The notes under the pieces were generated by a model. That model made no database searches and was not told the origin of the DNA. It saw only the letters and a program-made list of their open reading frames with translations. A DNA stretch of 60,862 bases from Bacillus phage vB_BspP_Dartukuta, in the sequence record MW749009.1, one strand, 5' to 3'. The translations under genes and the position numbers were made by a program. Numbering within the stretch: position 1 is the first letter of the stretch; the number at the start of each line of letters is the position of its first letter. Of this stretch, positions 10,703 to 11,160 are shown piece by piece.

Positions 10703-10876
10703 TTACTTGATCTTTTCTGCTTGGATCCGCTTGTAAATCTCTTCGCGGTGTACTTCGATATCTTTGGGGGCGTTGATACCTATGCGAATTTGATTTCCTT
10801 TTACTCCCAATACAGTGACGGTTACTGCGTCACCAACCATTAGTGTCTCTCCGATACGTCTTGTAAGAATCAGCAT
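10703..10876 (-). CDS. csrA: CsrA/RsmA-family RNA-binding global regulator homolog (57 aa)
   Basis: Below the track cutoff. Translation [57 protein letters not shown] is near-identical in pattern to bacterial CsrA/RsmA; AGGAGG Shine-Dalgarno upstream of the ATG at 10876. Confidence 0.9.
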
Positions 10877-10923
10877 GATTTCCTCCTTTTCCTTTGCTGT
10901 AATATTGAGTGTAGACTGTTATT

Positions 10924-11160
10924 TTAAATGTGCTCAGCTTGAGCGTTTCTTGCTTTATTTACAGCCGCTTTAATTCGATTGCGAGCTGCGTTCAGCTGTT
11001 CGTGCGGGAAGACTCGAATATCCAAAAGCGCATCCATGTATCCCATGACGCTATAAAACGCCATATTGCTGTGTGGGCTCTCTTCAACATGGACTACAAG
11101 GCTTTCAAGCCTATCTTGCATGCTTGGTACCAGTTCGACAGCCAATAAATTATCATCCAT
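10924..11160 (-). CDS. Hypothetical protein (78 aa), first gene of the leftward early operon
   Basis: ORF track; immediately upstream of csrA on the same strand; no recognisable motif. Confidence 0.5.
   Translation of the reverse strand: MDDNLLAVELVPSMQDRLESLVVHVEESPHSNMAFYSVMGYMDALLDIRVFPHEQLNAARNRIKAAVNKARNAQAEHI

Follow-up and report, generated by a model that had tools for sequence, protein, structure and literature searches.

A CsrA/RsmA homologue in the predicted early-left operon of phage vB_BspP_Dartukuta and the small gene constantly found upstream of it

The window analysed here is the complete deposited GenBank genome (MW749009.1, 60,862 bp) of 'Bacillus phage vB_BspP_Dartukuta', and the open reading frame (ORF) at positions 10703..10876 of its minus strand is, on sequence grounds, a genuine and intact phage member of the CsrA/RsmA family of RNA-binding regulators. 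The 57-residue product is probably a functional CsrA made from an early-left operon repressed by cI, and would add a phage-controlled pool of CsrA in a Gram-negative host that very probably has a Csr/Rsm system of its own. What is new here is a small gene of an unnamed family, hereafter H (10924..11160, minus strand), which constantly lies upstream of the phage csrA. The deployment of CsrA by phages is itself a strategy already described, and the Dartukuta locus is a further example of it and not a new concept.

The family assignment made in an initial annotation of this DNA was borne out at the thresholds of Pfam, NCBIfam and PHROG. The product matches Pfam PF02599 over the whole domain (E=5.8e-25, 87.5 bits against a cut-off of 27), passes both NCBIfam equivalogs (NF002469 with 111.5 against a cut-off of 73 and TIGR00202 with 92.4 against a cut-off of 70.1) and matches PHROG 9500 'CsrA-like regulator' with E=9.8e-31. 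Its identity to Escherichia coli CsrA (PDB 1Y00) is 84% over residues 1–55. The perfect Shine-Dalgarno sequence that had been noted is also seen, the ORF being preceded by AAAGGAGGAAATC-ATG, in which the Shine-Dalgarno is followed by the start codon. RNA contacts by residues of strands β1 and β5 are known from work on the E. coli and Pseudomonas proteins, and in Dartukuta CsrA the residues L2, L4, R6 and R7 of β1 and V42, H43, R44, E45, E46 and I47 of β5 are identical to those of E. coli. The stretches MLILTRR and (I)EVHREEI are thereby kept, and the conservative V40I is the sole change among the RNA-binding residues. The protein should form a homodimer that binds GGA motifs and represses translation.

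Related loci, numbered with the prefix L (L006 and so on) and including independent metagenomic phage contigs, provided ten further csrA alleles for the ratio of non-synonymous to synonymous differences (pN/pS). Against these alleles the Dartukuta gene shows a pN/pS of 0.1–0.4 with synonymous sites near saturation (pS 0.6–1.0), and against Salmonella csrA the pS is 0.91 and the pN/pS 0.11. The low ratio and the saturated synonymous sites thus indicate a gene that is old and constrained and not a recent fragment of a host genome. In some sister alleles R7 is replaced by N, S or K and in some H43 by Y; R44, E46, L2 and L4 are invariant in all of them. The setting is that of a phage, as the initial annotation had stated: RecT, a RecE-like exonuclease, the single-stranded DNA-binding protein SSB, dUTPase and integrase are the neighbours, alaS is absent around csrA and the alaS-csrA-tRNA-Ser/Arg arrangement of hosts is not found there.

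The gene is the second ORF of a predicted leftward operon, preceded on the same strand by H and located after the cI terminator and the operators, which confirms the order and the position originally described. The intrinsic terminator of cI (AGCCTGCCTTGTGCGGGTT followed by T8; 11590..11608, minus strand) was located by a terminator scan and by its sequence, and downstream of it the minus-strand interval 11497..11560 contains left operator (OL)-like sites, found by pattern search, together with a putative leftward promoter (PL, TTGCAA-18-TAATCT) recognised by eye. The operator-like palindrome (C/T)AACT-N4-(A/G)GTT(G/A) occurs in two or three copies downstream of the terminator in the pattern search, at 11510..11522 (CAACTTTAAGTTG on the minus strand) and 11531..11543 among them, and the same palindrome is present three times in the interval between cI and cro (12315-12360). 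The putative PL overlaps one of the palindromes. The predicted early-left transcript has a boxA of the rrn/lambda type at its start (GGCTCTTTAAAAA, 11464..11476, minus strand); the motif GCTCTTTAA(A/C)AAC matches the rrn boxA consensus and was found in six sister loci, about 310–335 nt upstream of H in L008, L011, L033 and L038 and about 1.1 kb upstream of it in L035 and L036. No boxA was found downstream of cro. The boxA is followed by an ORF-free, moderately structured leader of about 300 nt (11161..11463, minus strand; folding z = -2.76). L006 and L007 have a conserved version of this sequence, and the hairpins of Dartukuta and L007 differ by compensatory changes. A hairpin followed by TTTGG is located at about 11189..11213, just before H. 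A second type of leader occurs in sister loci, and both types end in a GC hairpin and a short U run before H. The combination of boxA and leader suggests antitermination by host Nus factors without an N protein. The operon can thus be read in the order PL/OL, boxA, structured leader, H, csrA, structured RNA, tRNA-Arg and recombination genes, and from this anatomy we infer that H and csrA would be expressed from the cI-repressed PL upon infection or induction.

H encodes an acidic helical protein of 78 residues and has its own Shine-Dalgarno sequence, AAGGAG. Its pN/pS is 0–0.3, and its AlphaFold2 (AF2) model has a predicted local distance difference test score (pLDDT) of 88.8, with helices at residues 3–9, 11–27, 32–46 and 53–76. 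Because of this low ratio and the confident helical fold, H is considered a real gene, and its product is modelled as a folded all-α bundle. The protein has an isoelectric point (pI) of 5.4 and a net charge of -4; all its variants are acidic (pI 4.6–6.1), and residues E19, E26, D43 and D47 are invariant. No match to H was found in Pfam, PHROGs, NCBIfam or PADLOC, and Foldseek comparison of the model with the PDB and BFVD returned nothing with E<0.3, only the noise of generic helical bundles. H belongs to a rare family. Among 5.8 billion proteins a word-indexed search gave 9 clusters, among 1.84 billion representatives a full HMMER scan gave 2 true H clusters, and a profile including the remote member from L022 (hhalign probability 97%) gave 20 H clusters, all unnamed and nearly all metagenomic. 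When two types of H were compared by tblastn with 50,697 phage records, no match was returned, and scans of IMG/VR and of GTDB representatives revealed no relative of H.

The location of H and csrA had been called 'N-like'. This holds loosely for position, since they are the first genes after the putative PL, and not for the proteins, neither of which resembles lambda N. Proteins of the lambda N type are disordered, about 100 residues long and carry a basic, arginine-rich N-terminal motif. An N-like antiterminator was therefore rejected both for H, which is acidic and folded, and for CsrA, which has a different, known fold. The lambda N/nutL region and the predicted Dartukuta operon are alike in their location after PL, in a boxA at the start of the transcript and in the hairpins that follow. 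In contrast, Dartukuta has no N-like protein and its boxA is of the rrn type.

In every locus with sequence downstream of H, the gene that follows is csrA, at a distance of 0–49 nt. Complete H-csrA pairs are present in Dartukuta, L006, L008, L009, L010, L011, L013, L022, L033/L034, L035/L036 and L039, and on the contigs that end inside csrA (L007, L012, L037, L038 and L040) the start of csrA still follows H. The stop of H and the start of csrA are adjacent in L010, L013 and L033. This rule persists down to about 24–27% identity of H and irrespective of differences in the cI, replication and structural modules. The pairwise identities of H and CsrA are weakly correlated (r=0.26), and mismatched alleles are observed in both directions: L008 and L013 share 98% of their CsrA and 39% of their H, and Dartukuta and L008 share 95% of H and 55% of CsrA. 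The weak correlation and the mismatched alleles thus indicate that the adjacency outlasts the shuffling of alleles and does not reflect co-inheritance as a block. H was never seen without csrA. The converse fails: csrA occurs without H in L017, where an unrelated 75-residue ORF precedes it, and in all cultured csrA phages examined, no H homologue being found beside csrA in PSTCR8lys, F116, D279, PP9W or phi297, or in 8P. The ORF upstream of csrA in L031 is ambiguous with respect to H (hhalign E=0.05).

The region between H and csrA (10877..10923, minus strand) contains the csrA translation-initiation region, AAAGGAAAAGGAGGAAAUC, which is identical in Dartukuta and L006 and displays three GGA motifs. 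In most sister alleles, namely the allele types of L008, L011, L017, L022, L035 and L039, the Shine-Dalgarno of csrA is instead enclosed in a hairpin, (U)GGC(Y)-NGGA-GGCC(A), in which GGA occupies the four-base loop and the fourth pair of the stem alternates between C-G and U-G; this hairpin can also be written GGC(Y)NGGAGGCC. The canonical CsrA/RsmE binding site is a hairpin that presents GGA in its loop, as established by selection of RNA ligands in vitro (SELEX) and by structures such as PDB 2JPP. The csrA gene of E. coli is autoregulated through GGA motifs that cover its own ribosome-binding site. By analogy, the GGA-rich or GGA-hairpin ribosome-binding sites suggest repression of the phage csrA, whether by the phage protein itself, by the CsrA of the host or by the two together. 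After the csrA stop codon, a GC-rich hairpin (GCGGCACGCACTGTGCCGC; 10664..10684, minus strand) that is conserved in L006 and L011 and is followed by a weak U tract may act as a leaky terminator.

Downstream of csrA, a stretch of 740 nt without ORFs extends to the tRNA-Arg gene and contains collinear blocks that are 90–100% identical between otherwise diverged loci. The conserved region (9965..10560, minus strand) includes a structured RNA with its core at 10186..10345. This core is formed by a closing helix, AAUGCAGUG/CACUGCAUU, an invariant hairpin, GCCAA-GGCUGA-UUGGC, and, after variable inserted arms, a further hairpin, GCAGG-AGAUCAGCA-CCUGC, for which the compensatory variants GCGGG/CCCGC, GCAUG/CAUGC and GCUGG/CCAGC were observed. 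The sequences of the two conserved loops (GCUGA/UCAGC) are complementary to each other, so that a loop-loop contact would be possible. From ten sequences a covariance model was built, which gave 117 bits in Dartukuta and recovered new instances with 35–93 bits in L033/L034, L024 and L020 and as a second copy in L006. In the alignment 92.6% of the cells are paired and four pairs show double-sided changes, a level reached in 3 of 500 shuffles. The 3' end consists of a long hairpin and a terminator-like CCCGC...GCGGG-U run before the tRNA, and in L019 the element is preceded by a TTGCAT-17-TATTAT promoter. The RNA is present in Dartukuta, L006, L010, L011, L017, L019-L024, L026 and L030-L034; it follows csrA in 9 of the 11 csrA loci of the group and also occurs without csrA, often beside phage tRNA genes. 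The tRNA after it varies (Arg-TCT, Arg-CCT, Ser, Tyr or arrays of three) and the order csrA-RNA-tRNA is retained. The element has no match in Rfam 15 and was found in none of the cultured phages of INPHARED. A sponge RNA is recognised by many GGA motifs displayed in hairpin loops. A sponge of the CsrB/RsmZ type was considered for this region and rejected, with 5 GGA in 743 nt against about 12 expected at random, and the Rfam models of CsrB, CsrC, RsmY and RsmZ did not match the downstream RNA.

The initial annotation did not know a phage-borne CsrA to be a described strategy, a view that the published record corrects. A survey in 2020 covered 2517 phage genomes, reported csrA in 30 of them and also in prophages, and defined a phage-associated RsmM subfamily (Sobrero & Valverde 2020, PMC7366521). 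In 2021, a search of GenBank and IMG/VR revealed many phage RsmA/CsrA genes, citing F116 and Burkholderia phage DC1, and proposed roles in host manipulation and as anti-CRISPR factors (Campa et al. 2021, PMC8450108). In a 2025 CRISPRi-ART study, knock-down of the csrA homologue of coliphage PTXU04 resulted in smaller plaques (PMC11879866). Dedicated PHROG families exist, 87 INPHARED records encode a CsrA relative and the Dartukuta gene is itself annotated in the deposit as 'putative carbon storage regulator CsrA' (QXN70876.1). The suggested database search for CsrA paralogues in the same synteny gave at least four temperate phages (F116, PP9W, phi297 and PSTCR8lys) that hold csrA between repressor and recombination genes. 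In the Providencia phage PSTCR8lys csrA follows cI and precedes the exonuclease and integrase genes; in F116 the CsrA-domain protein gp24, whose N-terminal domain is 60% identical, is encoded 1.5 kb downstream of a cI-like repressor in a leftward operon; in the Pseudomonas phages PP9W and phi297 csrA is located between the repressor and RecT. In Vibrio phage D279 csrA belongs to an operon divergent from the replication genes, and no repressor or recombination gene is annotated nearby.

The phage CsrA/RsmA homologues (PHROG 9500, 5527 and 8397; RsmM of P. aeruginosa phages; F116 gp24; the 'carbon storage regulator' of PSTCR8lys; PTXU04 gp28) resemble Dartukuta CsrA in domain, phage-borne location and proposed role. 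In contrast, the Dartukuta lineage has H in synteny and the structured RNA and tRNA-Arg downstream, and its CsrA of 57 residues lacks a C-terminal tail, whereas the F116, PP9W and phi297 proteins have 123 residues with an extra C-terminal region. The chromosomally encoded proteins, CsrA in Enterobacterales and RsmA in Pseudomonas (PDB 1Y00, 2BTI and 1VPZ), share with the Dartukuta protein a high identity (84% for E. coli), the RNA-binding residues and, as in the autoregulated csrA of E. coli, GGA motifs over the ribosome-binding site; the Dartukuta gene differs in its predicted regulation by the phage and in lacking both the chromosomal gene order and a CsrB/RsmZ-type sponge nearby. Other mobile elements also carry CsrA paralogues, namely CsrT of a Legionella integrative and conjugative element (ICE), RsmH/RsmE of Pseudomonas plasmids and that of Sinorhizobium pMBA19a (PMC7366521). 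Like these, the Dartukuta gene is a mobile copy presumed to serve its element, and unlike them it belongs to a predicted lambdoid-style early operon under cI.

As judged from the anatomy of the locus, PL would fire upon induction or infection, RNA polymerase modified at boxA would pass the leader hairpin, and H and CsrA would then be translated, H working in the CsrA pathway. Family membership and the conserved residues predict that CsrA dimers would bind GGA sites in the leaders of host, and probably phage, mRNAs and would shift translation and mRNA stability, CsrA limiting its own synthesis through its ribosome-binding site. The pay-off would be host reprogramming or the repression of defences, as proposed in the literature. 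Several points weigh against this account. The assignment of PL, plausible as it is, depends on a match to 8 of 12 consensus positions that falls under the threshold of the scanner, and with a hairpin and U run between PL and H, antitermination may be required for expression. Since 8P, the closest phage by portal identity, lacks csrA, the gene is accessory and not essential. Furthermore, the 'Bacillus' label of the genome conflicts with its gene content, and the target regulon cannot be named.

Three other explanations of the phage csrA were weighed against expression from the early-left operon. The gene could be a lysogenic-conversion moron, expressed from the prophage independently of PL and altering biofilm, motility or carbon storage to the benefit of the lysogen, in line with the discussion of prophage CsrA genes as host-fitness genes in the literature (e.g. 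PMC7366521) and with the variable presence of csrA among related phages. However, the scan found no promoter-like site between PL and csrA, and the gene is on the cI-repressed strand right after the OL operators, amid early genes and not at a genome end or att, so that a moron appears unlikely. An equally low probability is given to a mainly anti-defence role, in which the phage protein would act on host immune systems, CRISPR-Cas for example, by repressing their translation. Three types of CRISPR-Cas are repressed by RsmA in Serratia and such a role has been proposed for its phage homologues (PMC8450108), and early expression would fit; yet nothing in Dartukuta or its relatives bears on it and no PADLOC match was obtained. 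Far less probable than either is a decaying or hitch-hiking host fragment, or a chimera of the assembly, without function in the phage. Its similarity to chromosomal CsrA would be in keeping with such an origin, but the genome is a complete deposited phage genome, the synonymous divergence from Salmonella csrA is high with a low pN/pS, and the reading frame, the Shine-Dalgarno and the key residues are intact. In addition, independent contigs whose immunity and replication modules differ also carry the H-csrA cassette, in one case as an identical cassette beside a different cI. This candidate was rejected, and both objections that had been anticipated, a chimeric assembly and a non-functional ORF with altered RNA-binding residues, failed on the same observations.

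The strict adjacency of H and csrA is good evidence, drawn from sequence, of a functional linkage between the two genes, and H can be inferred to act in the same pathway as CsrA. The proposal that the 78-residue ORF could encode a partner or antagonist of CsrA is strengthened in so far as H is a real gene specifically linked to csrA. A dedicated two-protein module, in which acidic H binds the basic RNA-binding face of phage or host CsrA and acts as an antagonist, chaperone or specificity switch that times its activity, is a possible but tentative reading. It would be consistent with the location of csrA immediately after H in all of at least 11 distinct loci, however divergent H becomes, with the persistence of the pair despite allele shuffling, with the absence of any solitary H and with the opposite character of the two proteins, the pI of Dartukuta CsrA being 9.7 and the invariant residues of H being acidic. 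The sole precedents for such a role are FliW (PF02623; PDB 5DMB) and CesT (PDB 5Z38), small proteins that are encoded beside CsrA or act on it. H, an all-α bundle, has neither homology nor fold likeness to them, and no informative fold match of any kind was obtained. The reading is further weakened by csrA genes that exist without H, in L017 as in PSTCR8lys, F116, PP9W, phi297 and D279, and by the origin of all the loci in one poorly sampled phage group, in which inherited synteny could explain the adjacency; the conserved intergenic sequence, serving as a recombination joint, could add to it. A direct interaction between H and CsrA is given a fairly low probability. Still more speculative is the wider proposal that H is the first known member of a family of CsrA partners particular to phages, either RNA-mimicking antagonists or adaptors, and that H-CsrA constitutes a portable module for taking over the host Csr/Rsm system, possibly together with the structured RNA and tRNA-Arg.

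The genome has the layout of a temperate phage: genes for integrase, cI/cro, terminase, portal and lysis are all present. The integrase gene (3..1205), the dUTPase and SSB genes of the left arm, the RecE-like exonuclease gene (5914..7518, minus strand) and recT (7523..8317) lead to a terminator (9844..9861, terminator scan) that follows tRNA-Arg(TCT) (9883..9959, minus strand; ARAGORN and Rfam). On the other side of the H-csrA operon, a cI-type repressor of 212 residues (11639..12277, minus strand; Pfam PF00717 Peptidase_S24 E=2.8e-26 and PF01381 HTH_3 E=1.1e-12) is followed by cro (12380..12577, plus strand) and, to the right of cro, by replication genes, terminase and portal. The portal is 70–76% identical to those of the Pseudomonas phages 8P and F116, and the structural genes are F116-like. 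Megablast and blastn searches of the csrA region against INPHARED gave no match, the Dartukuta genome being apparently not in that copy.

The host of Dartukuta is very probably Gram-negative and probably belongs to the Pseudomonadaceae, so that the 'Bacillus' label looks wrong. Several features point to such a host: an Rz-like spanin (58922..59431), an endolysin (58283..58828) without a cell-wall-binding domain, a DUF4124/BamE-like protein (the interval 56999..57868 is cited with the lysis region), a CsrA of the gammaproteobacterial type, the F116-like structural genes and the C4/isrK RNAs. An indirect pointer in the same direction is the 90% cluster of the Dartukuta TnpB, found in Thiopseudomonas and Denitrificimonas genomes. 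A survey of Bacillus-phage endolysins also recorded the Dartukuta enzyme as a singleton without a binding domain (PMC11674121).

Other features of the genome were recorded in the course of the analysis. The RecE/YqaJ-like exonuclease has a C-terminal domain that matches the T7 gp5.9 RecBCD inhibitor (PF25708, E=5e-17); the fusion joins recombination and anti-RecBCD functions, and the same architecture occurs in L009. The 4203-residue virion protein (42617..55228, plus strand) has matches among the giant virion proteins of phages like F116 and 8P and contains a DarB-like antirestriction segment (PHROG 10089). A P1/P22-type immI-like module encodes an Ant antirepressor (P22_AR_N; 55302..56407, minus strand), upstream of which lie a C4 antisense RNA, the a1/b1 targets of this RNA and an isrK-like RNA, each of them above its Rfam gathering score. 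TnpB (365 residues; 59445..60542, minus strand) belongs to the RNA-guided endonuclease family (NF040570 at 240 bits) and is encoded near the integrase end. L017 is a sister prophage in GCA_036678325.1 with the same cI and cro as Dartukuta and with tRNA-Arg(CCT) in place of TCT; between its cI and csrA (11238..14576 of that locus) a gene pair encoding an AAA-ATPase and an S8 peptidase looks like a defence system.

The Csr/Rsm system is a master switch of motility, biofilm, carbon storage, virulence and, in some species, CRISPR-Cas, and a phage bringing in CsrA of its own at an early stage can tilt this switch, an idea that has already been published. The compact, apparently cI-controlled cassette of boxA leader, H and csrA offers a place to dissect the role of a phage CsrA. 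The unclassified structured RNA is worth recording and the doubtful host assignment worth correcting. The strict H-csrA linkage is a first hint at the genomic level that phage CsrAs may be accompanied by modulators of their own.

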